Notes: generated by a model from the sequence alone, not told the origin. 64,000 bases of DNA from a virus (IMGVR_UViG_3300024262_000019:32001-96000); one strand, 5' to 3'; counted from the first letter of the stretch, positions 1,896 to 47,143 are shown. Translations and numbers: made by a program.

Positions 1896-3467
1896 CTACA
1901 GCTTAAATGACTTCCTCTGATTCCTCAGATCTTTGGGGCTTAGCTTTTCACTCTCTATATCCTTAGCAAGCTTAGTGATGGCATCCTGATTATCAGAGGC
2001 AGGCCCAACGACAGAAGTAAGCTCATTCTCAACCTCCCTCTCTGCAGCGGCAGTCTGGCTAGCCGCCAATGCCACCCTAGCCCTAGCCAAGTTAGAATCC
2101 TGATGAAATAGACCCATGGTTGCCTGGAATGTTGTAATCCACCCACCAACTCCAACCTGATGACGGATAAGCTGAATGCCGTATGTGCCATTGAACAAAG
2201 CACCGCTATCCTCGGCGCCCTCACCAATCTTCTCAAACCCAGACACATCAACAGCTTCGCCTGGACGCAATCCTGGTATTCCGATCGTAGTGAACTCTCC
2301 GTTGATCCCATCTCGCATCTGCATGTCTTTCCAGTTGGCAGCGGCCCTAGCCCTGTCATCCGGATCATCTACATTCCCTGGGAAATTTGCCTGTGCCTGT
2401 ATATCCTCATCGCCAACATCGACGATTCTCCCGACATCACCATCCTCTTTCCCTTTACCACTCGCAACCGTAGTGGCATCAGCAGAATAGCTATCCGGGT
2501 CGTCGTTCTTTTTCTCGCTCCAATCAAACATCAACAGCTTGCCAACGCCAGGCGATAGCCAAGGTCCATCTCCCTCTGCTGAGAAATTCAATATTGGAAA
2601 CATGTTCTTAGTTGGATCTACCGCACCCCTGAGAAGAAACTTCTTCCTGGTTGCCTTGTCGTCACCCATCTGGGTGCTGAAATATTTAGTCTTGCCAATG
2701 ATTCGAATCTCATTGCCATGCATGATCAGATCGAATCCAAACTGCTCTATCGTCTCCCTTACAAACCACCAGTCATTTCTTGGACCCTTGGTGATAACCC
2801 CAACGGGAGCAGGGGCGTCTACCTTGGTATGCTCAGCCGTAGCAGCCGGCTCTCTAAAGAAAGCATCACCGGTAATCCTATCCTTATCCTTAGAAGGTAT
2901 ATCAGCATACAGTCTGTCGATTTTGAGCCCAGGACCACCATTGCCTTCTAGTACATATTTCTTAAGAGTAATCTCCACAGCTTCCGCCCAAGTAGTATTC
3001 TTAGGAAACGATTTCTCCTCCGTGCCGCCGACAACGTTCATCTGATATCCGACGCCCAGGGCGTTGAGGGTGATCGTAATATCACTACCCATAGCAACGT
3101 CTGGCTTCTGAAGCATCCCGCTGAATGTAAGCTGAGAAAAAGCCGTAGCACCACCACCACTGCTGGTACCAGTTGAATAACCAAATTCAACCTCCAAACG
3201 ACCCACACCATGCCTGACCAGCTCAGACTGGAGTAAGTCTAGACCATCCTCAAATGGAGGAGTGAGCACCATTGCTAGCTTGACGTTGTCACCGAATCGA
3301 TGCTCAACGGTCACCTGTGACACAAACGCGAGAGCCCTAAAATCCGACAGGGCAGATCTTTGTTCACTCTGAACCCATAGCTCTATGGTCTCGCCCTTCT
3401 GACCAGATCCGGCTGGGAATTGACGTATCCTTCCGGACAACGCAACACCGAAGAAATCGATTGCCAT
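1896..3467 (-). CDS. Baseplate hub protein (gp27/gpD-like)
   Basis: C-terminal TIGIPGLRPGEAVDV...FNGTYGIQLIRHQVG..GWITTF pattern; lies between LysM-like and spike genes. Confidence 0.75.
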   Translation of the reverse strand: MAIDFFGVALSGRIRQFPAGSGQKGETIELWVQSEQRSALSDFRALAFVSQVTVEHRFGDNVKLAMVLTPPFEDGLDLLQSELVRHGVGRLEVEFGYSTGTSSGGGATAFSQLTFSGMLQKPDVAMGSDITITLNALGVGYQMNVVGGTEEKSFPKNTTWAEAVEITLKKYVLEGNGGPGLKIDRLYADIPSKDKDRITGDAFFREPAATAEHTKVDAPAPVGVITKGPRNDWWFVRETIEQFGFDLIMHGNEIRIIGKTKYFSTQMGDDKATRKKFLLRGAVDPTKNMFPILNFSAEGDGPWLSPGVGKLLMFDWSEKKNDDPDSYSADATTVASGKGKEDGDVGRIVDVGDEDIQAQANFPGNVDDPDDRARAAANWKDMQMRDGINGEFTTIGIPGLRPGEAVDVSGFEKIGEGAEDSGALFNGTYGIQLIRHQVGVGGWITTFQATMGLFHQDSNLARARVALAASQTAAAEREVENELTSVVGPASDNQDAITKLAKDIESEKLSPKDLRNQRKSFKL

Positions 3468-3782
3468 TTATCTCTTCAGCTTTCGCAGCAACTTAGACTT
3501 AACAAATGTTTTCGATGGAATCCTAATCTGTGCATTCTCCTTAAGGTCCGTCGGAAGAATCTCAAGGTTATTGGCCCACGCTATGACCCACCAAAGCCTA
3601 GAGTCCCCATAATACCGATATGCCAGAAGGTCGATCCTATCCGTACTCGACACCACATGAAGAACGTCATCCACTCTAGCAGTGATATCTGGAAGTACTA
3701 CGGTATCCCAGAACTCGACGCCCTCAGATCTGAGCAGATCTGTAAACAGAAGACGTGAGTTACCATTTAGCTCAACTCCCAT
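3468..3782 (-). CDS. LysM-like tail/baseplate protein (gpX/gp53-like)
   Basis: DRIDLLAYRYYGDSRLWWVIAWAN...IRIP signature. Confidence 0.85.
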   Translation of the reverse strand: MGVELNGNSRLLFTDLLRSEGVEFWDTVVLPDITARVDDVLHVVSSTDRIDLLAYRYYGDSRLWWVIAWANNLEILPTDLKENAQIRIPSKTFVKSKLLRKLKR

Positions 3783-6700
3783 TACTGCGTCCTCTTATTC
3801 CTTCTTGGCGTCTTATCAGTAGATTTTGGGGGCAGAGTCATCTCGCCGCCTGACGACATGGCGCTCGCCAGGGTTTGGATACTCATATTTATGTCTCTCA
3901 GATACCCAGGAATCAGAGCACCCTCCTCGGCCCAATCTGGGTTATTGATCGTACTCCTAAGATTCTCAGAGGCAGCCTGAGCCAGCCCGCCACCACTACT
4001 ACTACCACCCTCTGGACTAGCAGATGCACTACCAACCACGGCTGACATGGCAAGGGCCTTATTATAGGCCGCACCTATCATCGCATCCGCAGCCTTGCCG
4101 CCCTTAAATGCAACCGCCAAAGCCGACACAACCCGCGAAGCCCACAGGTCGATCTGACTTGGAGAAGCCAGCAAATCCATCAAGTTTATCGACTGCGCAA
4201 GTGCAACAAACTTTCCCTGCATGGATGCAACGAATCCAATGAACGCAACGACTGCCCTGCCGGCTTCAGAGACGGATACATACCAGTAATCCTTAATGTG
4301 TTGCTCAGCTTTATCAGACCACTGTGCCGTTAACGTTTCCTGAGTTGCGAGCCCCTTAGTCATCTCGTCCCATACCGAGTTAACAGAATCGGCGAGACCA
4401 TCCATCATTTCAGTTGCCTGCTTAATGAACGTCCCCATGAATTTCTTCATGCCCCTCTCGACGGCTTCTAAGTTCCTCTTAAAGTCTCTCGGATTGATAT
4501 TGGAAATACTGTCAACCATGCCAGCTGCGACCTTGCTAGATACGCCCATGGCCTTAACTATCTGACCACCCCTCTCCGCAGCCTCCGTCTCCAAAGTAAT
4601 CCCATCAGCCTTAGCCTTGGCAACAACGCCAACCATCCCCCTGTCAAACCCCTCACTGAGACCGAGAGCCAGGTTCTCAGAGTTCTCACCAGCAATCCTG
4701 GTGACATCCTTACTGAGACCTTCATACTTAGTGCGGATAGCAGCCACTTCAGCATCTAATGCGGCTGCGGTTTTATTCCCCCTATTTGCAATTGCTTCGT
4801 TTGTTGCCGACTCCTGCAGGTTTGCAATGATCTTGATCTTCTCAAGAACCATATCCCTCTCTTTGCCCTGGATATTCTTCAACCCATCCATGGTCCGAGT
4901 CGCCGCATTCAGCGTCGAGTTAGACCACGTCCTCGATGCCCTGCTCGCCAGCGACATGCTCTTATCGGCATTCCCTTCGACGCTCTTAAGCATTGCCCCT
5001 ATGCTTCCAGTGATTAAGCTAGCTTCATCCTCGATAGCCAGGGCGGCGTTCTTCATCCTCACATTCTGCGCATCCATTGCCGTAGCCCGAGCATCAAGCT
5101 CTATCTGATAGGCAACCGTCCCCTTCTTACCGGCTGCCTCCATCGCAGCCAGCCTAAGGTCGTGGTGCGTCATGATGTCGGCGGTCTCCTGACCTATAAG
5201 CGTCGCTTGCTCATTGATCCTAGTCTGCAGATCGGAAGCATACGCAGCGTTATACTTACCAACACTAGCCATCAGATCGTCACCAATGGCTAGCTGTTGG
5301 CCGATAACCTTATTGAACTCAGCTGCCTTCTCAGCAGAATATCCATGTGTCTTAGTGAATTCACGATTGTACTTAACCCACTCAGCGGTAGCTTCCCCGG
5401 CCTCCTTTGAGGACATTCCATAGGTATCAACCGCCTTACGTACCTTATCCACTGCAGCCGTTGCACTCTGCCATGACTCAATATTGACAACCGCTAGATT
5501 CATGTCCGCAAGCGCTACGTGAACCCTTACGATCTCACCTTTAGCATTCTTAGCCCACTTATAGATGGCATCGCCAGCGGCTATGATCTTGCCAGTGGTC
5601 GTAACAACCTTCTCACCAGATGCGATTTGACTATCAACCAGAGCCTTAACCTCCATATCAGTAACAGAGGCCAGCTGCTCTATAGACCCGATACCCTTAG
5701 CAGCACTGGCAACAGCCTCCCTATGGGCCTTCTCTAGAGCTATGGCAGAGTTCCTAGCCATAGCCTCGACATCTAGTTCTGCCTGCTTAGCGCCCCCGCC
5801 GATCAGGTCGCTAAAAAAATCACCTATCCCAGAAGCGATAGCTCCGATGTTGTCATAGACGTACTCGGCAGCCTTATATAGGCCATATATCGCAATTCCT
5901 ATGGCGGCTATAACTGCTATAACCGGTGCTGCTGCAACGATGAACGGAACCATCGACGCCGCCATGGAGATTCCAGCTGAGATGAATGCTGGAATCATCG
6001 TGGCTACAACATACAGAGTCAGCAGAGTCAGCCCTATCAGGAGACCCTTGACGGCCATGACGACAACCTTGATCACATTTCCAAGCAATGGGAACTTCGT
6101 ATGAATAGCTTCAACTATGCCATCAACGAGACCAACGATAAGACCTAGCGCCCCTTTAACAGATTTGTATATGATTTCTGGCAAGTGCAAGAAGATCTTC
6201 CATACCGCAGCCATAGCAATAAGACCAGCCTGCCCAAGATACTTACCGAGCGTTGCTCCAACACCGTTCCAATCGATGCCTCCCAGAGCAGATAAGATCT
6301 TTCCACCTATATTGAGAACAGACTCAAATAGCTTAAGTGACAACTGGGCCGCGAATGAGAGACCCTTGCCAAGTAACTCGGCAACTTTACCCCATGGGAT
6401 ACTGTCAACAATCCTAGTGATCACCGGACCAATGATCGACATAGCCTTTGAGAATACATTCTCAACGGTCTCCATGATCTTTGGTAGCTCACCCTTGAGC
6501 TTGTCGATCCAAGGCTGAACAATGCTATTGCTACCCTTGGCCAGATCTTTGAAAACGAAATAAAGTCCAGCAACCGCTGCCGTCACAAGAACCAAAGGAC
6601 TAGCCAAAGCACCGAATGCGGCAACAATGCCTGGCATCACCTTGAGAATTGGAGCGAACTGGTTCGACAGCTCCGAAATGGCCATACCGTATTTGGTATG

Positions 6701-30236: not shown

Positions 30237-33056
30237 TCATCTTCCTGGCATGCCCATCTTTATCTCATTGATAAGCTGCCCTAACTCACCAAGACGCCTG
30301 GCTGTTTCATTGTTGGCGCCCATAATCGTATCTAGGTTGTCCTCAACCATTTTTTCGTGATCACGGTTTCCTTGGAATAATTCCTTCTCAGTTATTGGCC
30401 TATATCCGAGTTGCTGTCTCATTTGTGGCCATCTGCTGGACAGACCCCCAGCAGTACGTATTGAATGACGTAGATCTTCGGCAGCCTGAGTACTTCCACC
30501 CATCACTCCTGCCATTTGTTGCTGAGCTGCAGCTTGTTGGGTTTGGATCTCAGCTTGGGCAGCCTGCTGTTGGATCTGTCCCTGGTTTTGAACATCCATT
30601 TGCAGACCCATCGCCCTTGCCTGAATCTCTGCATCACTCAACTGCTCCTGGTGACGCTCTTTGATGATGTATTCGATCTCTTCTTCGCTAAGTCCAAATA
30701 CTTTCTGGAGAATCCAATGCAGAGAGACGAACTGCTGCATTCGCCCGGCGAAGTCTGCCTTGGCATTCCTGACCTCTAGCTGAGCAAGTTCGAAAATCGA
30801 ACTCGGCGTCGTCATGCAGATTTCAAAATCGACTGCGGCTGGATTGATATTCAGAGCAGCCAGGTGAACCCTGGCCATCTTCTTCATCCCGTTCCTCAGT
30901 TCGCGCTGTAAACGAAGGACAGTACGGGCAAATCGCACATCCTCCTGAGACAGCACACCCTTGGCACGCGGAGCCTCCGACCCAAGATAGACCTTGGGCA
31001 CCTTGATAGCCGCGTAGAGCTTCAGCTTGAAGTACTCGATATCCTCCATGTGCTGCCACGACGGGCTGCCCACGACATCGATTTTGGTCTGCTGCACACC
31101 CTTGCGAACAGGGACGAAGAAGTCCTCATCCTGTGACAGGGGATTATATTTCAGATCAAGCTTGCCGGTCTGGGGATTATAGAACTTGGTCTTCTTGTAC
31201 TGCTGACGGATCTTATGCAGGAATGCCATTGCCTCTTTTGGCGGCATATCTCCGACATCTATATAGAAAGCATACCGCTGAGGGGCTCGCTGCAGCCTGT
31301 AAACCATGGCCGCATCCTCAAGAAGCATAAGCCTCTTCCAGATCCACCTGGCCGGCTCAAGCATCGAGTAACCGTAGATAGACCTACGATGCCTGGAGCG
31401 CATCCGGAAGTGTGCAACCTCCCAATCCTCCAGGGCGGCGTACTTATCCTGCGTCTGAGACCCAGCACCAGCCATGCGTTGCGTCAGAAGTTGCTTAAAC
31501 TCATCCGGGCTGTACCCGAACCTGCCCTTGTAATCCTGGACAAACCCAAATAGCTCGCCTCGACGACCTTCGATTCGTCGCATCGTAGGTGGTGGCAAGA
31601 AGTTCAAGCCAACCAACCCGTCCTGCGTAACCAGAAGCTCTTCGTAGTCGTTTCCGTACTTTACTAAGGTTCTGGCTATCTCCCAGATTTCCTCATCCAT
31701 ACGAAGCCTACGCCAAAACAGATCTTCTAGAATCGTCTGGACTGTCTTGTCTGGACTGTCAATCCAGACCGCCCTGTTCTGCAAGGACTCCGTCTGAGTG
31801 GCGTCATCGGCATATATGTCAATAGCACTGTTATGAACAACAACTCCGTTACATACGAAGTTGTGATACCCAGGCACCTCCAGGTCAAAAACCTCAGGTC
31901 GCTCATCCAGCTCCTCAACCCTAACCACTCTGTGGTTATTATCGTCCTCGATCAGGTCATACCTGTCCAGGTTGCGCCTAGCGGTGCTCCATGAAACGTC
32001 AAGTATCCTTGCGGCCTCGGCAATGGTACCGCCAGAGGCATAGGCAGACTCAACCTGTTCCCGGCTCAGATCGATACGGTGTGCATCCCCTATTCTCTGT
32101 CGATGTATCGGAGATAGCGGCTTACCGCTGCGTGCCTCCGACTTACGTCGTCGAGTTTCAAGTGACTCACTCTTACCTTTCTTGTAAGAATTTCCAAGCA
32201 TAGCCTTGGATTTTTCCATTCGCCGCTGAGCAGTCCACTCAGGTAAATACTCTGAATTATCAATCTTAGCGATATGATGGAGCGCATGACTGGAGAAGCT
32301 CTCGACGCTTAGATTTTCAGGAGAGTTGTTGAGTTTATTTTCATCAATGTGATGAACGACGTCGCCAATTCCAGCGCCCATAAACCGCTCGCCAACAATC
32401 CTATGAACCCACGTCCATCGCTTCCCATCGGACGACCTGATCGTCGAGTCTGAATTTGGCTGATGAACTTCCCAGTACGGATCTGCGGCACAGCTATTCA
32501 GAGATCTCGTCCGCAAGACGCCGGGCATCAAACGTTGACCAGTAGCGAGTTCGCCGGCCTGCACCCACTTCTCATCCTTGGTGAAAAATAGATGGTCAGA
32601 GGTGCATACAATCTCCTGGCCGTTATCAAAGATAACCCTAACCATCTTCTTGGCATGACCGGCCTGTCCTGTAGCCCTAGCATTGCAAGCCCTTGCTGGA
32701 ACCAATGACTTAGATTCCCTGTCATATGACAGGACATGGAAGTCACCGCCACGACTAGCCAGATCCTCGATCCTCTCCCACCCGTATTCGAGTGTGAAAA
32801 CACGAGAATCGCCATGCAGGCACGACAGCTCCGGGTAGTCGTCCATCTCCTCGTAGTCCACAAACCTAGCCATAAGGTCGTGTTCAAGCTTGAGGTAATC
32901 AGATAGGACGTCATGCCCATAAGCCTGAAGAAGATCGAATCCAGTCTGTGGATATCCCGACGCAGTTCCGCCCTTGGCAAGGTTAAGAACTACCTGTTCT
33001 TTATCCCAACGAAGTAGCCCACGGACCTGATGTCCAACATTTCCCCAGAATCCCAC
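30237..33056 (-). CDS. Portal protein (T4 gp20 family) containing an intein
   Basis: YEEMD..PE..SAIDIYADD, YG.S.LE.AR..WK.L.L.EDA..VYR..RAP.R..FYIDVG.MP, EDFFVP.R, LK/IKVPK.YL. Confidence 0.95.
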   Translation of the reverse strand: MGFWGNVGHQVRGLLRWDKEQVVLNLAKGGTASGYPQTGFDLLQAYGHDVLSDYLKLEHDLMARFVDYEEMDDYPELSCLHGDSRVFTLEYGWERIEDLASRGGDFHVLSYDRESKSLVPARACNARATGQAGHAKKMVRVIFDNGQEIVCTSDHLFFTKDEKWVQAGELATGQRLMPGVLRTRSLNSCAADPYWEVHQPNSDSTIRSSDGKRWTWVHRIVGERFMGAGIGDVVHHIDENKLNNSPENLSVESFSSHALHHIAKIDNSEYLPEWTAQRRMEKSKAMLGNSYKKGKSESLETRRRKSEARSGKPLSPIHRQRIGDAHRIDLSREQVESAYASGGTIAEAARILDVSWSTARRNLDRYDLIEDDNNHRVVRVEELDERPEVFDLEVPGYHNFVCNGVVVHNSAIDIYADDATQTESLQNRAVWIDSPDKTVQTILEDLFWRRLRMDEEIWEIARTLVKYGNDYEELLVTQDGLVGLNFLPPPTMRRIEGRRGELFGFVQDYKGRFGYSPDEFKQLLTQRMAGAGSQTQDKYAALEDWEVAHFRMRSRHRRSIYGYSMLEPARWIWKRLMLLEDAAMVYRLQRAPQRYAFYIDVGDMPPKEAMAFLHKIRQQYKKTKFYNPQTGKLDLKYNPLSQDEDFFVPVRKGVQQTKIDVVGSPSWQHMEDIEYFKLKLYAAIKVPKVYLGSEAPRAKGVLSQEDVRFARTVLRLQRELRNGMKKMARVHLAALNINPAAVDFEICMTTPSSIFELAQLEVRNAKADFAGRMQQFVSLHWILQKVFGLSEEEIEYIIKERHQEQLSDAEIQARAMGLQMDVQNQGQIQQQAAQAEIQTQQAAAQQQMAGVMGGSTQAAEDLRHSIRTAGGLSSRWPQMRQQLGYRPITEKELFQGNRDHEKMVEDNLDTIMGANNETARRLGELGQLINEIKMGMPGR
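31830..32822 (-). mobile_element. Intein in portal (331 aa) with HNH endonuclease, NUMOD3-like and HTH motifs
   Basis: CLHGDS start, CTSDH block B, VHHIDENKLNNSPENL, FDLEV...HNF...VVVHN followed by Ser. Confidence 0.93.
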
Positions 33057-35549: not shown

Positions 35550-35851
35550 TACCTGCGTGCCCTCTTAGCGTCATTCTCAAGCTTCTCAAGCTGCCTAAGT
35601 GCGGCATCCAGTCTTCGGAACAGACTTCTCAGCTTGACGCGAGCGCCTTGAATGTTTCCCTTAGCCAGCGATCTACTCAGCTGCAACATCATCGTTCCAT
35701 TGATTTGCATCATCTGAGCAAGTGCAGCCGTCTGACTAGCTGGAACCCTGAACGATGGAGATGGAGGCTCCCAGGACTCATCGATATCGTCGTACATAAC
35801 GACATGCTCAGTGAGTCCGCGTATTTCTCTCTTGAAGAATCCCATGTTCAC
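35549..35851 (-). CDS. Hypothetical protein
   Basis: 100-aa ORF coupled to the TerL stop. Confidence 0.6.
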   Translation of the reverse strand: MNMGFFKREIRGLTEHVVMYDDIDESWEPPSPSFRVPASQTAALAQMMQINGTMMLQLSRSLAKGNIQGARVKLRSLFRRLDAALRQLEKLENDAKRARR

Positions 35852-38800
35852 CCCTGCAGGAACGGCAGCATAATCGTATCGTCTTCAACCATCTCCCGCT
35901 GCTCCTCTGCCTCTGGATTGGAGAAGTTGGATATGCCTTTAATAACACCCATAGGAGATCCGTGGTAGCTGGTCGTCAAGCTGTACGTGATACCAGCCAA
36001 TGCATCAGACACATCCTTACTGCCGAGGCGAGGATGATCAACCTTGTTGCGCACGTTATCTCGTTGAATCGACTTAAGCTCATCGAGCAACGGCTTGTAG
36101 TCATAGAAGCTGATGCGGTTCTCGTAGATCGCAGATTTCAAAACATCGTAGGCATCCATCGGCTTATCCACCGACAGCCTCTCGGCGGTGATGCCCTTCT
36201 TTGAGAACTTCTGAAGAGAGTCTGCTGAATTGAATTGATCCATCGTGACCAATCCAATTGAGAATCCGTAATGCTGGAATTGGTAAACGAGGGCTCTGAT
36301 CATTCCATAGTCAATCTCCCCGCCGATCGGAGGGTTGATACGAAGCAGCATATCTACCCAGACCCTAGGAGCTGGCTCTGTATATTGCTCCTGGGTCTCC
36401 GGGTCTCTGCGAACAATCGTCTTGTACCCAGTCACGCAGCCGATAGCAAAACCAGTCGAATCTGAGTTAAGTGATGGATCGATATGCACATGCCTGGCTA
36501 GCCCTGGGTAGAACTTAGGCTGCCATATCTGACTCATGCTAGCGCCTTCTCTGACGCTCACCTGCTTCGCCAGCTTCGTCCAATTGACACTTCCGCCGTC
36601 TGTTTGAACCCACTCCTCGACACTGAATGGATGCGACCTGTTCACATCGATACATGGGACGATTTTGTCTAGCTGCTGAATGAAAGGAGAAACGGATACG
36701 GTCGCAATACCAGCAACGTCTCGAATCGAGTCTTCCAAGTTGTTATCAAAATCGTTCCTATAGTCGATAGGAACATCAACGATAACCATGCCCTCCTGGA
36801 GCTTCTCGCGGACCGCTTCCACCTCATCTGGCTCAAGTATCTTACTCGGCACCAGGTCATTGCCGACTAAAACGGAGAACATCTCCTCCGACAGGGTCCC
36901 TTTTGGCTTCACATGCCAGGTTGCATAGTCACGGACGAATAGCGTCGGATCGTCGGCTGATTCTTTAATCCTCTTGGCAGTAAAGTCATCCCTGGTCTGC
37001 TTAGAGGAAACGACAAGCATCATACCTGGAAGCTTGCCGTGCTTCTGGAATCGAGACTTCATACGACGCATCAGTTGGTCGTAGAGAAACTGAGCCCTGT
37101 CTCCACCGCCGAAACGGCTCTCCATGCCACCCTTCTTCTTCATGGGTGCCATGAAGTTAGACTCGTCGATCATCGCCGCAAAAACGTTGAGACCAAGTGC
37201 CGCACTATCGGTCGATGCTCGCGCAGCAACCTGAACGTGGTTAGGGAATTGGATCTCCTTCTTGAGCGGCTTGTATGGAAAGTTCTCCATAAAATAATCG
37301 CTCTCTTTGATTTTGTTTACGATGTTCTCGAAGGCAACCTTAATCGCAAGGTCCTCCTTGACCGACAGGACGATCAGCGTGATGTCAGATCCTTTACCGA
37401 TGCCAAAGCTCTTGTGCGGATCTCGCATGCAGGACAGCTCATATAGAATCCTGCAAGCAGCTATAGACGCGAAAAATGTGTTGTGAATAATGATGCCGTT
37501 AGCGACAGCATTCTCCGTCCCTGGAACAGTCAGGTCGTAAACATCATGCCATCCGATGTCATCGATAGATTCGATACGCTCCCACACGACGTCCATATCA
37601 GCGAACTTGCGATACTCCCCCTGGTAACTCGTACTTCTACATAGCCTCTGGAATTTGTCGCGACCCATGCAGGAGCCCTTAGCCAGGGCCCCGCCAGCAT
37701 CATTCCACTCCTTATTGGTATGAGGACCAGTCTCCCTGCGGATGACCTTCAGCTCCTCTGTCGTTATCGGAACCAGGTCCCAGTTTGGATTGCCCTTGGT
37801 CGCTGACGCCTGAGCCAGCAACTTATCGCACTTAGACTCCTTGCCAGGGATTTTCCCAATGAACTCAAGAAACCTAAGCTGCATTGGTGCATCGGCAATC
37901 TGAAGTCGCCATGCGTCGAACCACTCCTTGGTCCCATCATCCTGTTTAATAGACTTCTTATGGTGGCTCTTTCTGGCGACGACCCCGAATCGCCTTAGCA
38001 AATACTGGACATCGTCAATGAGCCCCTCGCTGGCGAGCGCAATTTCAATCTTACGAGGACTTCCCGTGTAAACGTTCCCATCCGTAAACAAGCGATTCAG
38101 AAACAAAGCAAGCTGGCGGCTGTTCAACCCAAAGAACTTAGCCGGAACGCGCTTCTCTTTGGATAGGCAATCTATTCCAAGGCTACGCACCCAGTCCATG
38201 GCCCCTCGCACAGTCGTATACCAGGCACCGCGATCATATTTCTCACATCCGAATCCATCGAACCCTGGGATGTGCTCAGCACATAACTTGAAGTCGCCAA
38301 CAACTTCCTCGTCGCCTTTGATATAGACGCAGGAATTCGCAGTCAAGGAACCATCGGCAATCAAATAGGCAGCCACTTTGACGCACTCATCGGTAATCTC
38401 CAAAGTTGCAATCGGCTCAGGAACAGAGCGAGCGGCAGCCACAAAGCTGCCCGGTGCCAGGTCGAGTAGTGGCACATACCCTATTGGAGTAAGAACAGGG
38501 TGATCCTTACTTGCCTCCAGGTATTGTCCAGAGGCAAGGGTCATACGGAAGCACTGCTTGTGACCACACTTCCAAATCTTGGATGGGGGTCGATGCGCGA
38601 TCTCATTGCCATCAAGAGACGGAACCAGCACATCACGGTCCACGGCCTCTTCGATTGTCATTCTTCTCCCCGATACACCATCAACAAAAGAAGTCGTCGC
38701 TACGACCGATTTTCCCCATCCGATGCTGTTATGTACTTGAAATCCTTCACAAAAAAACGAATTACCGTTAGGTACACCGATGTCTCCGACCTCAATCGTT

Positions 38801-39492
38801 CCGCCATCCCCTAGACCGTCAATACGAGCCCAGCCATCACTGGCAGTTCTAACGAAATCCTCCCCGGGAACAACATCTTTCGCCTCAACCCACCCACGAC
38901 GAGTCATCACTTTATGCTCGGGTGTCAGGCGCAGGCTGGCCCCGTTGCTTACTGTAATCCTGACAGTGTCGCGCACCCCTGAGTGCCTGGCTTCGATAGT
39001 TTCAGCAAAGCCGACCTTACCATCTGGATATGCAAGGACTCTTGGGGAGTCGCCGCTTGCATCGAGGATCTGCCTGAGAGATGTGACCACTCCACCCTCC
39101 GCAACAATGCTTGCATCCAGATCTACACACCCCGTGAGAACTGCCTCACCGTAGTTGCCGCTGAACAGCTCCTTCATGTCCTCCTTGAGCTTTGGATAGA
39201 GCACATCGCATGTCTTCCCTAGGTAGTAGGGATCCATTACGAAGGTCTCAATATCCACCGGTCTTGTCTTGAACTCAGCCTCATTGAGAACATCTATGAT
39301 CCTTGGAGGCCCCTCCTCTCCTTCGACCATCTGCAGTTCATTAAATGCCGGGTCGTCCATCTCCTTGAGGCACAGCAAGACCGCCTCCCTCTCCTCCGGG
39401 GAAAGACTATCGAACTCATCCTTGAGAAGCTTGACCACCTCCTCCGGGGTCTGCTCGCTACGAACGCGACCACCTAAATCCCTGATCGCCAT
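35848..39492 (-). CDS. terL: Terminase large subunit with two inteins
   Basis: Spliced Walker A LTG-SIGWGK-T, Walker B MIDE, nuclease HID.S...D.TG, DQFNS, VDHP..GSKD.SDA. Confidence 0.95.
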   Translation of the reverse strand: MAIRDLGGRVRSEQTPEEVVKLLKDEFDSLSPEEREAVLLCLKEMDDPAFNELQMVEGEEGPPRIIDVLNEAEFKTRPVDIETFVMDPYYLGKTCDVLYPKLKEDMKELFSGNYGEAVLTGCVDLDASIVAEGGVVTSLRQILDASGDSPRVLAYPDGKVGFAETIEARHSGVRDTVRITVSNGASLRLTPEHKVMTRRGWVEAKDVVPGEDFVRTASDGWARIDGLGDGGTIEVGDIGVPNGNSFFCEGFQVHNSIGWGKSVVATTSFVDGVSGRRMTIEEAVDRDVLVPSLDGNEIAHRPPSKIWKCGHKQCFRMTLASGQYLEASKDHPVLTPIGYVPLLDLAPGSFVAAARSVPEPIATLEITDECVKVAAYLIADGSLTANSCVYIKGDEEVVGDFKLCAEHIPGFDGFGCEKYDRGAWYTTVRGAMDWVRSLGIDCLSKEKRVPAKFFGLNSRQLALFLNRLFTDGNVYTGSPRKIEIALASEGLIDDVQYLLRRFGVVARKSHHKKSIKQDDGTKEWFDAWRLQIADAPMQLRFLEFIGKIPGKESKCDKLLAQASATKGNPNWDLVPITTEELKVIRRETGPHTNKEWNDAGGALAKGSCMGRDKFQRLCRSTSYQGEYRKFADMDVVWERIESIDDIGWHDVYDLTVPGTENAVANGIIIHNTFFASIAACRILYELSCMRDPHKSFGIGKGSDITLIVLSVKEDLAIKVAFENIVNKIKESDYFMENFPYKPLKKEIQFPNHVQVAARASTDSAALGLNVFAAMIDESNFMAPMKKKGGMESRFGGGDRAQFLYDQLMRRMKSRFQKHGKLPGMMLVVSSKQTRDDFTAKRIKESADDPTLFVRDYATWHVKPKGTLSEEMFSVLVGNDLVPSKILEPDEVEAVREKLQEGMVIVDVPIDYRNDFDNNLEDSIRDVAGIATVSVSPFIQQLDKIVPCIDVNRSHPFSVEEWVQTDGGSVNWTKLAKQVSVREGASMSQIWQPKFYPGLARHVHIDPSLNSDSTGFAIGCVTGYKTIVRRDPETQEQYTEPAPRVWVDMLLRINPPIGGEIDYGMIRALVYQFQHYGFSIGLVTMDQFNSADSLQKFSKKGITAERLSVDKPMDAYDVLKSAIYENRISFYDYKPLLDELKSIQRDNVRNKVDHPRLGSKDVSDALAGITYSLTTSYHGSPMGVIKGISNFSNPEAEEQREMVEDDTIMLPFLQG
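37480..38709 (-). mobile_element. TerL intein 2 (410 aa, Ser-initiated, LAGLIDADG)
   Basis: SVVATT start after GK; AYLIADG and FLNRLFTDG; YDLTV...IIIHN followed by Thr. Confidence 0.9.
38728..39129 (-). mobile_element. TerL intein 1 (134-aa mini-intein)
   Basis: CVDLDA start, LTPEH block B, FQVHN followed by Ser; no endonuclease domain. Confidence 0.9.
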
Positions 39493-40266
39493 CTACTCCT
39501 CCGTATCTGGCGGTGGCGTGGCCTCATCCTCGGGCGATGGCGTGGTCTCATCCTCTACATCTATGATGTCTGGGGCAGCTTTAGCTGCATGCATGACAAC
39601 ATTTACGGCATCGATACTAGCCCTGTCACTGAGAACCGACAGTGCATTGACCATACTGAGAACCTTGCGACGACTATCCGGATCAGCCATAACGCTTCCC
39701 ACGCCCTCGTTGTATCGATTGCCTATCTGAACGGAGGCATGGCCAGTGACGGACATCTCGCCAAGCTGGCGTTTAGCAATACCTAGATCCATCTTCAGAT
39801 CTGCGCTCTGTTTAAGAAGCTTCATCGCATAGAAGATCTCTCGACCGGTCTGAGGGAGAAGCTTTTTGATCTTCAACTCATTGGTCATCTCTATTTCGAT
39901 ACGCTTGAACTGCTTTTTATATAGCTCCTCAAGCTCCTCAAGCTCATTCAATCCGTTGGACAATCTCTTGTTAGCCTGCATAACCACAGCGGCATTCTGA
40001 CTAGTGAGAGCCAGCTCGGCTGGCGGGATGGCCCGGCGATATTCGTCTATCATCTTGCGCACATAGTTAGCGCTAAGGTGGGTAAGCTCCTGGCTTTCAT
40101 CCTGAATGAACTTAGTCAAATCAGATGCCGACCAACCCATCCTCAGGCGGCGATCTACCTCCTCGAAGCACCTGCAGTCTTTCAGTGCTGCCGCTTTCTT
40201 CTGCTCGCGGCTTACCGGACGAACTGGTGGTCTACGAGTCTTTTTATCTGCCATGAGTCGCTCCAA
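39493..40266 (-). CDS. Putative terminase small subunit
   Basis: Helical 257-aa ORF abutting the TerL start; inference from position. Confidence 0.55.
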   Translation of the reverse strand: MERLMADKKTRRPPVRPVSREQKKAAALKDCRCFEEVDRRLRMGWSASDLTKFIQDESQELTHLSANYVRKMIDEYRRAIPPAELALTSQNAAVVMQANKRLSNGLNELEELEELYKKQFKRIEIEMTNELKIKKLLPQTGREIFYAMKLLKQSADLKMDLGIAKRQLGEMSVTGHASVQIGNRYNEGVGSVMADPDSRRKVLSMVNALSVLSDRASIDAVNVVMHAAKAAPDIIDVEDETTPSPEDEATPPPDTEE

Positions 40267-40363: not shown

Positions 40364-41776
40364 CTATATGATGAATTCAATTCCATCCGGGATCTTACCC
40401 TGGACAGTCTTTTGAAAATCGAAATTCTTTCCAATTGCAGAAGTCATAATCTGAGATGTTGTTTGAACGATCTTACCGATACGACCATCCTCGACGCCAT
40501 ACCCGCGCCGTAACGGCACAAGAACGCTACGAATGTAGTCCGTAGATCCTGAAACCATACCCTCTACATCCGTCTCAAGAAAAACAGTTCTAGCTATCAT
40601 GTCTGCAATATTGGGGACCGGGATACCAATCTCCATCATTACCTGGATAAGCAACGTCGCGACACCCTCGCCAAACCCATCCGTCATCTGCTTTGTGGTC
40701 ATAACCATCTCTTCACGCTCTCGCTCCGTGAAGGTTCCCATGAGCGCTATACTATCAGCGCCGACCGGCGGAGATCCATTGGATGGCTCCTCCAGTGGTC
40801 CCGAGAACTTACGACCCCAACCCTTCTTGCGCATCGCAAGATACCACTCTGCGGTAAGCGCAGAGCTAGGAAAAGACAGGCCAAATCCATATAACGCCAA
40901 GGAATCCGAAGACCTGTTGTATGCGTAATCACACAGCAATCTACTTGGTACGCCAAGTATGAAGTCGATCAGTATGGCGCGATAAATGGAATGCCTCAGC
41001 CTACTGGAAGATGTCTCCCATCGATTCGTGTCGTCTGGACCGAGCTTCGCCCAATACTCAGCGAAATTCTCAGCATTAAACGGCAGGGCCTGCAGTAAGC
41101 CAACCGTACCAAATGTCTCATCTACCAATGTTGGCGCAATCCTCAGGCGACGCCCCACCCGCTCTCTGACGGCGTCGGATATGAGTGGAACCAGATTTAC
41201 TTCTTTTGCTGAAATCGGTGGTGCTATGTCTTCGCACCCCATAGCCTTCATAGCTTCGTAGGCGGCCTGCTCCCTCCTGATAGGAGCATACTCATCATCG
41301 ACGCCATACGTGGCACCCATGGCCTCGCTGACGCTCGTATTGGCTAATGCTGGAAAGCGCAGGAGTCCACTTTTGACCTGACCGTCGAAGTTTCGGTACC
41401 TCGCCCATAGGTTTCCGCTAGCACCTCCGAGGACCCGCTCCTCAATATGCTCAATAGATGTCGTGCGGAGCCAGTCCCAGAGAATGGGTTCTGGCATATT
41501 CCACGGAGGATCAATGGTTGAACCATCGAACCTCTTCGATGGGATCATCAGTATCCCTGTCTTTTTATGATAGACAGGAGCCTGTGGGAGGGTCTCGGCT
41601 ACATACGCCGACTGCTCTGCCTTGGCTTTCTCAGCAGCCTCAGCATCACGTCTGCTAGGCTCCGGGGGCTCATGAGAGAGAGCCCCAAAAACACTACTTA
41701 GCTTCGCTATTGTTTGGTTGGGCATCGACGACGTTAACCTCTGGTAAAGTTTCAACCAGATCGGCTGCCTTGCCAA
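40364..41776 (-). CDS. PI3/4-kinase/HipA-like pseudokinase (unit 3)
   Basis: GGASG loop, RREQAAYE....G...IAPP, LIDFILG..SR (no catalytic Asp), LYGFGLSF (no Mg-binding Asp). Confidence 0.65.
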   Translation of the reverse strand: MARQPIWLKLYQRLTSSMPNQTIAKLSSVFGALSHEPPEPSRRDAEAAEKAKAEQSAYVAETLPQAPVYHKKTGILMIPSKRFDGSTIDPPWNMPEPILWDWLRTTSIEHIEERVLGGASGNLWARYRNFDGQVKSGLLRFPALANTSVSEAMGATYGVDDEYAPIRREQAAYEAMKAMGCEDIAPPISAKEVNLVPLISDAVRERVGRRLRIAPTLVDETFGTVGLLQALPFNAENFAEYWAKLGPDDTNRWETSSSRLRHSIYRAILIDFILGVPSRLLCDYAYNRSSDSLALYGFGLSFPSSALTAEWYLAMRKKGWGRKFSGPLEEPSNGSPPVGADSIALMGTFTEREREEMVMTTKQMTDGFGEGVATLLIQVMMEIGIPVPNIADMIARTVFLETDVEGMVSGSTDYIRSVLVPLRRGYGVEDGRIGKIVQTTSQIMTSAIGKNFDFQKTVQGKIPDGIEFII

Positions 41777-41993
41777 GATACTGGAACGCCGACCTTAAGT
41801 CATCTACCTCTGCGGAATACGCCGATGAATAACCTCCGACCTTATGCATGGCACTGTGCAGACCTGAGTGACCAAGATTTTTATCACCCATGGAGCCATC
41901 GCCATAGAGCGTCCTGGACTTAACTGCGCCATCCTCGTTCCACATGACACGTCGAACTCGGCCCTCATCATCGAAAACAAATACGACATTCAT
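41694..41993 (-). CDS. Small ORF preceding kinase-like unit 3
   Basis: 99 aa, same relative position as 43157-43417 and 45039-45344. Confidence 0.6.
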   Translation of the reverse strand: MNVVFVFDDEGRVRRVMWNEDGAVKSRTLYGDGSMGDKNLGHSGLHSAMHKVGGYSSAYSAEVDDLRSAFQYLGKAADLVETLPEVNVVDAQPNNSEAK

Positions 41994-41997
41994 GGTG

Positions 41998-43182
41998 TTA
42001 TTCCCCAGGCCTAACGCTTAGTTGAGAAAGTGTGCCTTCTAATCCGTGGGCGAGCATCATCTTTGCTCTTTCCTTAAGAAATTCAGCATCTTCCTTGGAA
42101 ACATTCATCTGATCTGAACCAGCCATATGCTCTCCGGCAGCAAGCCGTTTGAGCGTCTCCTTCATCCTTGGTGGATAGTTCATACCTACATCGTCTGACC
42201 TATTAGCGCGATAGTCAAGCTTCCCACCAGGAGCATAGGCTGAGACCACCGCATGACGACCCTCCTGCTCTGCCTCTTGCTTGGAATGTGCGGAGGCCAT
42301 CGAACTGTCATGATCGATCGCAACTGAGTGCGTATTTGGTCCAGCTTTGCTCACTAGAACATTGCCAGAGTGAGCATCTGTATGGCCAAAAAGCGTATGC
42401 ATTACGATGCCATGCATCCTATCCTCGTCACTTACCTTGGCCAAATCTGCCGGCGAAGCGAACTCTGCTTTGTCATGCGCACCGATGTGCTCCTGAACAT
42501 GAGCATCACCGCCGGCATGACTCGATGGCATCCGCATAGCCTTTGCCGCAGAGTCCTGATCATCTGGAGCCATACCACTGCTTAGGTGGCCATGAATCTT
42601 TGATTCGATACCAACGGGAACCATATGATGAGCACCCATGGAAGACATGACGTCATAAACCGCCTGATGCCTACGACCCCATTCGTGAGGTTCAGCGCCA
42701 GCAGACCAGTCAGCCCGATGCTCATCTGGGATATCTCCGCCACTCGGGCTCTTAGTATACCCCCAGGCAGCACCCTTGTGAGGCTTGGCAATGTATCCAG
42801 GACCATTCTCCAGATTGCCGTGAAGCACCACATTCCCAGAGCCACTCTTGTGACGAATTTTATTCTTGCCAGTAGTGACCGTACGAGCACCCTTAGCATG
42901 GTACGCACCACTGAATGCGTTTACTCTTGATGCGGCGTCCGACAGATCTGGCCTAGCCCTTGAGGCAAGACTTGGCTCAGAGTGCGGAATTTCGTTAGGG
43001 GTACTACCAGTCCACGATGACTTCTGCTGAGATGGTGCAGGCGGACCCTCGGCGACCTTCGGTTGAATCACAGTAGACTTTCTAACCGGCACAGTCTTCT
43101 GCTCTTCGTATAGGTCCCTTGGCGGATTCCTGAGCAGATCCATTGTTGATAGCCATCTAGCCATCGATAACCTCCACATCAA
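41998..43182 (-). CDS. PI3/4-kinase/HipA-like atypical kinase, likely active (unit 2)
   Basis: YIAKP Lys, RRHQAVY....G....VP, GHTDAHSGNVLV (DxHxxN), AIDHD. Confidence 0.75.
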   Translation of the reverse strand: MMWRLSMARWLSTMDLLRNPPRDLYEEQKTVPVRKSTVIQPKVAEGPPAPSQQKSSWTGSTPNEIPHSEPSLASRARPDLSDAASRVNAFSGAYHAKGARTVTTGKNKIRHKSGSGNVVLHGNLENGPGYIAKPHKGAAWGYTKSPSGGDIPDEHRADWSAGAEPHEWGRRHQAVYDVMSSMGAHHMVPVGIESKIHGHLSSGMAPDDQDSAAKAMRMPSSHAGGDAHVQEHIGAHDKAEFASPADLAKVSDEDRMHGIVMHTLFGHTDAHSGNVLVSKAGPNTHSVAIDHDSSMASAHSKQEAEQEGRHAVVSAYAPGGKLDYRANRSDDVGMNYPPRMKETLKRLAAGEHMAGSDQMNVSKEDAEFLKERAKMMLAHGLEGTLSQLSVRPGE

Positions 43183-43417
43183 CCATCGGACTCATCAACA
43201 ACCTCTGCAGGAGCAACTCCAGTGGAGATATTCCTAGGCGACTAGCACGAATTTGCATGTCCTCTAGCATGAGAGGAATAACGCCATCCCATAGCCCGGA
43301 CACTTTTATATCGCCTGCCACCTGCCAAATGTCAGCGCCCTGGGAAGACCTAAGCTCACCGTTGGCGATGTCGATCCTATTCACTCTTAGGCGCCTGGTA
43401 TCAGGAACGCTTGTCAT
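43157..43417 (-). CDS. Small partner protein, paralogue of 45039-45344
   Basis: RRLRV..ID...IWQ...SPL.....R...SP....EVID shared with 45039-45344. Confidence 0.7.
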   Translation of the reverse strand: MTSVPDTRRLRVNRIDIANGELRSSQGADIWQVAGDIKVSGLWDGVIPLMLEDMQIRASRLGISPLELLLQRLLMSPMVDVEVIDG

Positions 43418-45038
43418 CCTTGTGCTCCGATTTCATTTTTTTAACGAAAGAAAAATCCCCAACCAATGCATTCTGCATAGTCTGGTCAACGAACTCCTCT
43501 ATACCCTTCATCTCGTCCGGGACGTTGCCCTGTAAGATCTGCGCGTAGTATCTAGCAGCAAAATACGGATCTCTGGCGATGTCACCGGAGTGTGTTGCCA
43601 GCATCCACATCCTACTTAATGCACCGCACACCTGTAGGGCGCTGAGCTTCCTATCTATAAGTGCTCTCGCAAGCTCCCTAGACCTATCACCACGCATGCG
43701 CGATGCGATGTCCTGTCCAATCTCCTCAAACACCTTAATCTCTTCATCTCCGCCGCGAACGACCAGCATAGTCATAATGTCATTCCACATCAGCGCTTTA
43801 CCAGTTGCCGGGTCAGCGACGACATCCCCATATGCACCGACTCCCGACTCCATGTATCTCTTTCCGATTCTGGCTGGGCACGGAAGAGACATCTCATTTC
43901 CATATGCGATAACCGGATGACTTTCGTTGTCACAGAATGCAATGTCGCCAAAACTTCGATCGAGATTCCACACAACAAAATCAAACACAGCTAGGCGAAG
44001 AAACGATATCCTTCGATCCGGTGGCATGGTTTCCCATATCCGATTTAGGACATCTGTCCTCTCTTCGCTTCCGTTACTTTCAAAAATCGACTTGAACCAT
44101 TCCTCGCCGTCTATGGTCCACAGCTGATCTCTAACGAATTGTACCGTAGCGTAGCCTCCGAGCCTCTTACGCACATTGTCTGGATCGTCACCGGTCTCGC
44201 GGGCTACCCAGTCTACTAGCACCTCCCTCCTCTCTATCAAGGAGTCTGGGAGCACCGAAGTTAAGTCTCCATCATCGTCGAATCTACTAATCGTAGGAGG
44301 AATAACATCGTCGAGCCCACAGGACTTTGCCACCTCATATGCAGATGCCGCTCTCACTGACAGATCGCCACCCTCTTTCAGATTGACCAAATCTCCCCAT
44401 ATTGAATGGATAACAGGATCTCTTAGAGACTCAATCCATAGGTAGGCGCTAAAGGAGCCTCCGCGATGAGACTCAATGCGAGCGAGCATAGATCCGCTGC
44501 CCGGTTTGACGACTGTCATTTTGCGAACAGTGCCAGATCTGAGGTCATTAAGAAGGTCTGGCTCATCGACACCCCATAGCACTCTATCTGTTGGGAGAAC
44601 CGAAGCTATGGCTATATTTAGAGGACCGGGATCTATAACCTGCAACGCTCGGTTGCCTTTGTCATACCTTCTTCTAAGCTCAGCTGGGACCGGATCTTCC
44701 TCCTCGGCAGCTGACTTCGTCGTCTTCTTAATCCAGGCAATATCGTAATAGCGAACTGACATCCTAGTAGGCAATGGCTCAGGCTGCGCTGCGACCACAC
44801 CAGCCTGGGCTGGAGCTATGGCAGGCTGAAGCATTGGGCCATTCTTACCCTTGCTAACAGAAAGAGGTTGAATGGACGAATCCCTGCCTGTCTTAGATGC
44901 ATACTCGTCGTTTGGGTTTGCCTTCTTGACATGAAACGCCTGCTTAACGACCTGCGTTCCACCATCGGGAGATCTGCGACGAACCTTTTTTATGACTCTA
45001 ACTAGGCTCGCACCGAACTGTTCATATATATCACTCAT
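43401..45038 (-). CDS. PI3/4-kinase/HipA-like probable pseudokinase (unit 1)
   Basis: SAYEVAK.CGL.DVIPPT, RLAVFDFVVWNLDR, YGNEMSLP (no Mg-binding Asp). Confidence 0.7.
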   Translation of the reverse strand: MSDIYEQFGASLVRVIKKVRRRSPDGGTQVVKQAFHVKKANPNDEYASKTGRDSSIQPLSVSKGKNGPMLQPAIAPAQAGVVAAQPEPLPTRMSVRYYDIAWIKKTTKSAAEEEDPVPAELRRRYDKGNRALQVIDPGPLNIAIASVLPTDRVLWGVDEPDLLNDLRSGTVRKMTVVKPGSGSMLARIESHRGGSFSAYLWIESLRDPVIHSIWGDLVNLKEGGDLSVRAASAYEVAKSCGLDDVIPPTISRFDDDGDLTSVLPDSLIERREVLVDWVARETGDDPDNVRKRLGGYATVQFVRDQLWTIDGEEWFKSIFESNGSEERTDVLNRIWETMPPDRRISFLRLAVFDFVVWNLDRSFGDIAFCDNESHPVIAYGNEMSLPCPARIGKRYMESGVGAYGDVVADPATGKALMWNDIMTMLVVRGGDEEIKVFEEIGQDIASRMRGDRSRELARALIDRKLSALQVCGALSRMWMLATHSGDIARDPYFAARYYAQILQGNVPDEMKGIEEFVDQTMQNALVGDFSFVKKMKSEHKDDKRS

Positions 45039-45344
45039 CTAATCCTCTATGACCTCGGAGCGAAGGAACGGACTCCTGGAGATGCGAGCATGGAATACGG
45101 CCAATGGACTCATGTCGGCAGCAATTGATGACATGTGGTATCTAGCCGAAGACACCGGCTCAAATAGCATCACGGCAGCAACTCCGGTTCCGTATAGGCC
45201 ACCGTCCTCTGCCTGCCACACTTCACCGACTACGGAATGATCACTTCCAGTCCCAGGATCTACACTGTAAATCCTAAGCCTTCTCTCATCTCCAACGATG
45301 TCATCTGGCTGCAACTCAATTGCAGGTGATCTGTCGTCTTCCAT
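45039..45344 (-). CDS. Small partner protein, paralogue of 43157-43417
   Basis: RRLRIYSVD...VGEVWQ...SPL.....R...SP....EVIED. Confidence 0.7.
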   Translation of the reverse strand: MEDDRSPAIELQPDDIVGDERRLRIYSVDPGTGSDHSVVGEVWQAEDGGLYGTGVAAVMLFEPVSSARYHMSSIAADMSPLAVFHARISRSPFLRSEVIED

Positions 45345-45345
45345 A

Positions 45346-46122
45346 CTAGAACTCCAAACCTAAGGCCGCATCCGTGATTGCCTCTTCGATGATCTCGTTG
45401 ATGTCAACCTTCTTAGATCTTGAGGCTCTAACAATTCTCTTCATTGCCTCCCTAGTCTTATCAGACATCGCAACATAGATGTGCTCCTTGCCGCCCCAGG
45501 TGAAGACGAGGAAACTGTACTGAGCGGTATCACCGCTGTCGGACATGAACCTCTGAATGATCTTATCTAGATCTCCAACAGTCCTAGCCTCCTTGGCTTG
45601 CTTTCCAAATTCATCAGCCAGCTCAGCGGACATCGACTTCTTGATGTCGCCCTTAACCTGTTTGATCAGCTTCTGAAGCCCAGAGTCGTCTGTGTAGCCA
45701 AGCAGCTGCACAGCTTCGTCTCCATACTTCTTGGCCATCTCATTGTAAATAGCGACCATTTTGTCGGGATTCATCTTCCCGTGAAGAACATTGGACCTGA
45801 CATTCTGAAGCTTCCTAAGATCTTCCTCCTGCCACTTGTCGCCCTGGAGAACGTCCACTGGGATGCGCTTGAGACCAAGTGCCTTTGCAGCAGCAGCGCG
45901 ATGGTGGCCGCTGACTATCTCGTAGTAAGTTGAACCATCTTCTCGCTCAACATGGGCCACGGTTGGCGGGTCGATGAACCCAACCTTCTTGATCGTCTTC
46001 TTGAGGAGCGCGAACTCCTCCTCGGTCATCTCATTCGGATTCCACTCAGCGCCAACTAGTTCACCTGGGCTGACAGTGATTCTCTCGACATCCATCTTCT
46101 CGGGAGAGATGTCTGGCATCAT
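45346..46122 (-). CDS. ParB/Srx-like N-terminal domain protein
   Basis: WNPNEM....F..L...I...GF..P.......YEIVSGHHR..AA..LG...IPV. Confidence 0.85.
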   Translation of the reverse strand: MMPDISPEKMDVERITVSPGELVGAEWNPNEMTEEEFALLKKTIKKVGFIDPPTVAHVEREDGSTYYEIVSGHHRAAAAKALGLKRIPVDVLQGDKWQEEDLRKLQNVRSNVLHGKMNPDKMVAIYNEMAKKYGDEAVQLLGYTDDSGLQKLIKQVKGDIKKSMSAELADEFGKQAKEARTVGDLDKIIQRFMSDSGDTAQYSFLVFTWGGKEHIYVAMSDKTREAMKRIVRASRSKKVDINEIIEEAITDAALGLEF

Positions 46123-46372: not shown

Positions 46373-47143
46373 CTAAACAGTGAGACTTTCTCTTGAGTCC
46401 ACGCTATCCGGCTCATCGCGAAGATAGGCATGCCAGATCTCCTCGGTTAGAATCGTAACCCTATTCTTCTCTAGCGAATCCAAGATTTGAGATCGGTTAT
46501 GTCGGCGAAAATCCCAGCATCGCTTGCAGAGCCCATCCCCGGAATGCCTAGTTCTCTCATCGCTGCCGCTGGCACCGCATAGCCTGCAATTATCCAGATC
46601 ATAGTGAAGTGACCACTTGCGCTTCTCGGTGCGAAGATAGCTGGTTATCTCCTGCACCTGGTCAAACGTAATCATGTACTTCCTGAGCCCGTACCGCTTC
46701 CAGGTCTGTTTTATAGCGTCTCGGGCTCTCTGTATCTGCCGCCAATCATACCCAGTCTCACGCTCAATCTGGAGCCTCGTATAGGTACCCTGCGTTGGCG
46801 AGAAACCCAGCTCGTAGCATCGCCTCTCTATCGCCAGTCGATTACGTCTGATGAGCTGATCCATCAACTCGAATATGCTCAGATGGCCGACATTCTTCAT
46901 TAGGATCAGATCCTCATCCTTGGACCAAGGATAGGTAATTCTGCCAGGTCTACAGCCAGCTCGTTTACCCTTCTCGTCCCTGATGTTGAGATCGGTAGCC
47001 TTTGCCCGAACAGCCTGAACAGTCTTACCAAGGATAGCCGCTACCTCTGAGTCACGCCTAGTTCCCCAAAGCTCGCGAAGCTTACCCTCCTCATCGGCAG
47101 TCCAGCGAGACCTTTTACGTCTTGTACCGGATGATTCCCCCAT
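46373..47143 (-). CDS. Myb/SANT-like repeat DNA-binding protein with C-terminal Zn motif
   Basis: WTADEE.KL...GKT..AV..KA and WS.DED..L...R...AI..R; CRLC..H...LCKRC. Confidence 0.65.
   Translation of the reverse strand: MGESSGTRRKRSRWTADEEGKLRELWGTRRDSEVAAILGKTVQAVRAKATDLNIRDEKGKRAGCRPGRITYPWSKDEDLILMKNVGHLSIFELMDQLIRRNRLAIERRCYELGFSPTQGTYTRLQIERETGYDWRQIQRARDAIKQTWKRYGLRKYMITFDQVQEITSYLRTEKRKWSLHYDLDNCRLCGASGSDERTRHSGDGLCKRCWDFRRHNRSQILDSLEKNRVTILTEEIWHAYLRDEPDSVDSRESLTV

Follow-up and report, generated by a model that had tools for sequence, protein, structure and literature searches.

The 64,000-nt stretch IMGVR_UViG_3300024262_000019:32001-96000 (the window) lies within a 110-kb virus record, 67% complete by CheckV, that belongs to a contractile-tailed phage with a T4-like portal. 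Its minus strand carries an array of six tightly coupled open reading frames (ORFs) at 40364-45344, in which genes for small proteins (S1-S3) alternate with genes for large proteins (L1-L3) of kinase-like fold, with lengths of 101/545/86/394/99/470 aa from S1 to L3. The ORF listing agrees exactly with the original prediction, made from the sequence alone, of six coupled ORFs that alternate small and large at these coordinates. Adjacent ORFs are separated by gaps of 0-4 nt or overlap by 8-32 nt. A promoter and terminator scan gave no signal exceeding the shuffled expectation. The array genes are:

45039-45344, minus strand: S1, 101-aa small protein, paralog of S2
43401-45038, minus strand: L1, 545 aa, type II PI4K-like, with a non-canonical but invariant active-site set
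43157-43417, minus strand: S2, 86-aa small protein, paralog of S1; overlaps the end of L1 by 17 nt and also the start of L2
41998-43182, minus strand: L2, 394 aa, canonical PI3/4-kinase-like; probable start ATG 43164 (388 aa)
41694-41993, minus strand: S3, 99-aa small protein with no detectable kinship to S1 or S2
40364-41776, minus strand: L3, 470 aa, paralog of L1 and predicted degenerate pseudokinase; probable start ATG 41725 (453 aa)

The 388-aa and 453-aa starts are those of the database gene calls. The motifs quoted in the original prediction are present in the translations, with YIAKP, DAHSGN and IDHD in L2, NLDRSFGD and YGNE in L1, and VPSRLLCD and YGFG in L3.

L2 is the only large protein with the full canonical catalytic set, which consists of the beta-3 Lys, the D-x-H/R-x-x-N loop and the metal-binding Asp equivalent to that of DFG. 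The prediction had assigned this set to the middle large protein alone, and the family alignment bears it out: K127 (YIAKP), D263 and N268 (DxHxxN), and D284 and D286 (IDHD) are invariant in 24 relatives down to 36% identity. The L2 model built with the family alignment has a predicted local distance difference test score (pLDDT) of 83. Its best structural match is PI4KII beta (8a5x), with a VIA Z of 16.4 and a root mean square deviation (rmsd) of 3.9 Å over 260 aa, and Foldseek returned PI4KII alpha at E 3.5e-5. The next structural classes by VIA Z are Fam20 (about 13; range 12-13), actin-fragmin kinase (11.5), CtkA (11.1), PI3K (10.9) and HipT (10-10.6). Sequence support for L2 as a PI3/4-kinase is weak but consistent. 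PF00454 is matched by 22 of the 24 L2 family members (best E 8.9e-6), and alignment to the PI4KB catalytic loop is likewise consistent. The complete and invariant ATP-phosphotransfer site makes kinase activity of L2 most likely.

L1 and L3 form a diverged paralog pair (BLASTP E 2e-10; hhalign of alignments A2 and A3, probability 99.8%, E 1.4e-30, 366 columns). The best structural match to the L1 model is again PI4KII beta 8a5x (VIA Z 13.1, rmsd 4.7 Å over 214 aa; next class 9.1), and PI4KII leads the next class by 3-4 Z units for the L1 and L2 models alike. The top Foldseek matches to L1 are all PI4K or PI3K, and the ESM Atlas returned PF00454 clusters at 0.93 together with SCO1664-family models. 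Pfam found PF00454 in none of the 25 L1 family members and in neither L1 nor L3 of the window; 6 of 30 L3 family members match it weakly (best E 0.0027). A near-global profile alignment of L2 with L1 and L3 (E 4e-4) keeps Gly loop, alpha-C helix, catalytic loop and DFG strand in collinear order. The proposal that all three large proteins share an atypical-kinase fold is upheld for L1 and L2 by their models, which point to PI4KII, and extends to L3 through its clear paralogy to L1 in sequence.

The active sites of the two paralogs have diverged in different ways. L1 has neither the beta-3 Lys nor the DFG Asp. The family alignment shows D353, D360, R361, G364, D365 and G380 to be invariant in 25 relatives and E382 nearly so, and an invariant Arg, R206, adjoins the Lys position. 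The catalytic-Asp position of L3 is Ser in the window and S/N/D/E/C across the family, the Asn position also drifts, and the sole invariant residue of the catalytic loop is its Arg. Judged from these sequences L3 is a genuine pseudokinase, because its catalytic residues are lost and their positions drift. The terms pseudokinase and dead are unproven for L1 because invariant and chemically plausible substitutes occupy the catalytic positions, and L1 may be either an atypical enzyme or a ligand-binding pseudoenzyme. Two pseudokinases had been proposed to flank L2; the description fits L3 and is unproven for L1.

The small proteins follow a different pattern of kinship. S1 is a paralog of S2 by both BLASTP (E 7e-5) and hhalign (probability 98.3%, E 1.9e-14), and it is conserved in 8 loci (alignment A4). 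Neither BLASTP nor profile comparison detected sequence kinship of S3 with S1 or S2. S1-S3 have no Pfam match, PDB sequence profile searches with them gave chance-level matches only, and 16 relatives of S1 and S2 have no match in Pfam, Couple_hipA/HipS included. The three small-plus-large units are not simple repeats, because the kinships cross: L1 goes with L3 but S1 with S2, and S3 has no sequence relation to either small protein. This mismatch speaks against the array of three repeated units that had been proposed.

The array lies between two genes that accompany it in relatives:

45346-46122, minus strand: ParB-like nuclease, upstream neighbor (PF02195, ParB_N, E 7.8e-8; phrog_26387, E 8e-50)
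39493-40266, minus strand: p257, 257-aa gene in the TerS position, downstream neighbor, beside TerL

This agrees with the predicted placement between a ParB-like gene and TerS. The ParB-like gene stops 1 nt before the start of S1, an adjacency that is constant in relatives, and L3 is followed by p257 and the intein-bearing TerL, which places the array directly upstream of TerS, TerL and portal. The order p194-p256-ParB-S1-L1-S2-L2-S3-L3-p257-TerL-p235 is identical in nine IMG/VR contigs, and nine further metagenome contigs, most of them fragments, show the same order as far as their sequence allows. In all, the gene order is conserved in 18 other contigs. The array is retained at TerL identities down to 58%. 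In relatives whose TerL identity is 50% or less, the sequence upstream of TerL, covered for up to 10 kb, did not contain the array, and several of these distant relatives still have p257 beside TerL. Against the closest relative, nonsynonymous divergence (dN) is 0.12-0.30 for all six genes; synonymous divergence (dS) is saturated or incalculable, and dN/dS is at most 0.13 where it can be computed. Amino acid identity to that relative is 82% for L1, 78% for L3, 64% for L2 and 62% for S3, which makes L2 and S3 the fastest evolving. The six genes are under purifying selection, and the conserved order together with this selection shows that all six are real.

In metagenomes the large proteins each belong to a separate conserved family, with 28 matches to L1, 24 to L2 and 34 to L3, and a profile search of 1.8 billion representatives recovered only 79 L2 relatives. 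The INPHARED phage collection has no DNA or protein match to the array or to any large protein, PHROGs has no match for any of the six proteins, and GTDB genome contigs scanned with the L1 profile gave no match. A search of IMG/VR with P0065, a member of the L3 family, returned only an already known 199.6-kb contig. Literature searches found no description of a phage PI4K-like or pseudokinase module of this kind, in agreement with the original prediction, which did not recognize the module as a described system. One group of large contractile-tailed phages carries the array as a clade-specific operon that is passed on vertically, and the array proteins are a new family in the protein-kinase-like superfamily that is nearest to type II PI4K by fold.

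The likeness to type II PI4K (PI4KII alpha and beta; 8a5x, 4hnd, 4pla, 5eut; PF00454), the best structural match to both L2 and L1, extends in L2 to the Gly loop, a beta-3 Lys within an '..AKP..' strand, a D-x-x-x-x-N loop and an 'ID..' metal-binding strand. Identity is only 7-15%, however, and the array proteins have no palmitoylation insert or membrane feature. The array also differs in being composed of phage genes, with three large proteins accompanied by small ones, and in that L1 and L3 lack the canonical residues.

Some relatives appear to have lost L2. The sequence M-(P)-R-R-W-(I/L)-S-T-..-L-L, otherwise the N-terminus of L2, stands at the head of four L3 family members (P0065, P0066, P0067 and P0173; 462-482 aa), which then continue with a normal L3 start. 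A metagenome-assembled genome at NCBI labelled Planctomycetota encodes L1 (MHC4929770.1, ACYTFU_08845) and a peptide-bearing L3 (MHC4929771.1, ACYTFU_08850) under consecutive accessions and locus tags. A 3268-nt contig has a complete L1 and a complete L3 that together take up 2994 nt, and therefore has no space for L2. The L2 family search turned up no L2 relative on contigs size-matched to those of the variant lineages. A quick L1 tree places the L2-less lineages within L2-bearing ones; its well-supported branches require at least two changes, and the closest sister of the window's lineage is an L2-less group. This strong indirect evidence, rather than proof, indicates that L2 was deleted repeatedly, in at least two sublineages, probably along with S2 and S3. 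The L1/L3 pair, and not L2, looks like the constant core of the module because some relatives lost L2 but kept L1 and L3. On this evidence L2 is not indispensable to the module.

A conserved N-terminal peptide opens each of the three large proteins and leads into a disordered linker. The peptide is a conserved basic 46-aa hairpin in L1 and RW-x-ST-xx-LL in L2. Across the family the L2 peptide (RW-x-S/D-T-x-x-LL) is nearly invariant, and it survives fused to L3 in the L2-less lineages (listed at window 41725-41776 and in P0065-P0067). The L2 peptide may by itself act as a signal for docking or targeting.

PI3/4K-like domains also occur in proteins of other viruses. Among the top BFVD matches to the L2 model are proteins of uncultured Caudovirales with such a domain, with annotations that include HK97-type portal (1201 aa), 'phage head morphogenesis domain' (1020 and 1140 aa) and NUDIX. 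Two haloarchaeal viruses, HHTV-1 and HSTV-2, also contribute proteins to these matches. Gp16 of Halovirus HSTV-2 (KC117376; 10647-12119, 490 aa, annotated hypothetical) matches PF00454 at E 1.5e-5, has a canonical GNDDRHYGN...AIDSG site and is encoded between the major capsid and tail-sheath genes. More distant L2 relatives from metagenomes (P0136, P0158, P0144, P0153, P0146 and P0157; 790-1550 aa) consist of 2-4 tandem PI3_PI4_kinase-like domains with GNxDRHxxN and IDH/IDN motifs intact in every domain; three have a NUDIX domain and in one the first domain is HipA_C-like. The occurrence of the fold in portal, head-morphogenesis and NUDIX fusions of other phages suggests a wider and overlooked phage tool. 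A late or virion-associated role of the array is suggested because links to head proteins recur elsewhere and the array adjoins the packaging genes.

We favor, with moderate confidence, the interpretation that the array encodes a hetero-oligomeric kinase-fold phosphotransferase complex that acts on host or phage proteins. L2 would be the active phosphotransferase, added as a second kinase, and L1 the member with a rewired pocket. The L3 pseudokinase would partner L1 in the manner of Fam20A with Fam20C, and S1-S3 would be co-translated subunits or adaptors. The proteins would be made alongside the packaging and head proteins, might travel in the capsid and be delivered with the DNA, and would reach their host or phage targets either near the time of packaging or once delivered. 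Eukaryotes and secreted bacterial effectors provide the best-known kinase/pseudokinase partnerships. In Fam20A-Fam20C (5yh3, 5wrr), the second structural class for L2, a degenerate paralog is likewise kept alongside a kinase-fold enzyme, and the L1/L3 pair has the same composition of kinase-fold paralogs of which one is degenerate (E 1.4e-30; L3 drifts, the L1 loop is invariant). The array proteins have no sequence membership in the Fam20 family, and the roles are distributed differently, in that the degenerate members are constant and the canonical kinase is dispensable.

Several observations weigh against this interpretation. All window proteins fall short of the Pfam gathering score for PF00454 (27.1 bits), and the L2 match (14.1 bits) covers the catalytic loop only. 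The L1 model (pLDDT 64) is good in the C-terminal lobe and poor in the N-terminal lobe, the homology of L2 to L1 and L3 rests on the fold and a weak profile alignment, and the kinase fold of L3 is predicted through its paralogy to the modeled L1. The absence of L2 from the variants was deduced from protein records, locus tags and contig sizes rather than from read DNA. Pfam detects no head-protein domain in the array proteins of the window, which are free-standing and not fused to a head protein as some of their relatives are.

A possible but less than likely alternative is that the invariant L1/L3 pair constitutes a phage effector of a new kind. L1 would then be an atypical enzyme held by its pseudokinase paralog L3, the pair would be packaged in the capsid and injected with the DNA, and L2, S2 and S3 would form a second warhead, optional and dropped by some lineages. 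The rewired site of L1 would consist of an Arg in place of the beta-3 Lys, the D-R-x-x-G-D loop and a Glu after the DFG strand, and its chemistry might be other than simple phosphorylation. SelO and SidJ are 'pseudokinases' with chemistry of this broader type. Comparable phage enzymes that modify host proteins are the virion-delivered effectors (T4 Alt, MuF-fused and polyvalent-protein enzymes; PMC5512222) and the T7 Gp0.7 kinase. The array proteins differ from the virion-delivered effectors in being free-standing. The polyvalent-protein kinases are Ser/Thr/Tyr kinases lacking the C-terminal lobe (PMC5512222) and were rejected as relatives because they belong to a different family.

Three further explanations compete with a phosphotransferase complex acting on proteins. 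The constancy of L1 and L3, which lack the canonical site yet are the most conserved members and are always kept while L2 is lost in some lineages, could also mean that the kinase folds were co-opted as non-catalytic structural or assembly proteins, whether head-internal, packaging-associated or scaffold-like, and that the L2 motifs are a relic or a minor side activity. The position next to TerS, TerL and portal, the portal and head-morphogenesis fusions, the location of gp16 in the HSTV-2 structural module and the conserved peptide and linker of each large protein all agree with such a role. Against such a role, the five catalytic residues of L2 are invariant over the whole range of its relatives, the invariant D-R-x-x-G-D loop of L1 favors a conserved pocket over a simple scaffold, and the fused phage relatives and HSTV-2 gp16 retain canonical DRHxxN and ID motifs. 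We consider a purely structural role unlikely. The same PI4KII matches raise the question of the substrate, since the nearest solved structures are lipid kinases, and the NUDIX domains in distant L2 relatives and in the annotation of one BFVD match would suit a small molecule. The array might thus encode lipid or small-molecule kinases, not protein kinases, that act on a host membrane lipid, like type II PI4K, or on a nucleotide-derived metabolite. The fold does not give the substrate, the next-best matches (Fam20, CtkA, actin-fragmin kinase and HipT) are all protein kinases, and no lipid-binding or membrane feature was seen in the array proteins; we consider this explanation decidedly unlikely.

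The HipA-like identity that had been suggested for the large proteins would point to a HipBST-like toxin-antitoxin, exclusion or addiction module in which the small proteins are HipS-like and the kinases HipT-like. HipBST (7ab4, 8ezs; PMC10627512, PMC9325769) likewise pairs an upstream small gene with a kinase from this broad superfamily, and the small-then-kinase order resembles hipS-hipT. HipT is among the structural matches to L2, and the Atlas model of S1 matches HipA N-terminal regions weakly (template modeling score 0.49), among unrelated matches that are equally weak. PI4KII is far closer to L2 than HipT is (Z 16.4 against 10.6). HipA_C (PF07804) and HipA_2 were not matched at E up to 1 by the window proteins or the large-protein family members, neither HipA_C nor Couple_hipA was matched by the six window proteins or the scanned members of the L1, L2, L3, S1 and S2 families, and none of the six array proteins matches a helix-turn-helix (HTH) family, so that a HipB-like gene is missing. 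Toxin-antitoxin cassettes are patchy, whereas the array is neither patchy nor mobile but fixed, vertically inherited and situated beside the packaging genes. It has three large proteins, and two of the three supposed toxins are without the catalytic set. A HipBST-like module is very improbable, and the HipA-like identity is not supported. The 5-hmdU DNA kinase of thymidine-hypermodifying phages was also compared and was rejected, being a P-loop kinase (5-HMUDK; PMC8989533) with no sequence match.

Few phage-encoded kinases have to our knowledge been characterized, T7 Gp0.7 being the classic case, and here a clade of large environmental phages keeps three diverged PI4K-like proteins next to its packaging genes. 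The array may disclose a new host-takeover or virion-delivered activity. The natural deletion variants reveal which members are dispensable and are a ready comparative experiment on a pseudokinase pair in a virus. New here are the mismatch between the S1/S2 and L1/L3 pairings, the invariant site of L1 as opposed to the drifting site of L3, the L2-less variants, and the portal, head-morphogenesis and NUDIX fusions.

Inteins are present in neighboring genes. The 1214-aa product of the TerL gene (35848-39492, minus strand) contains an intein with a LAGLIDADG endonuclease (Pfam Intein_splicing E 2.4e-21). This intein is missing from the closest relative (L001, 670 aa), and other or larger TerL insertions are found in L007/L017, L021 and L022. 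The portal gene (30237-33056, minus strand; Portal_T4 E 1.5e-69) has an N-terminal intein containing HNH and HTH modules. In L007, a homolog (2653-4506) of the 256-aa gene at 46373-47143 of the window, which matches a D5-like regulator PHROG, is interrupted by an insert that matches the LAGLIDADG part of the TerL intein by tblastn and is probably another intein.

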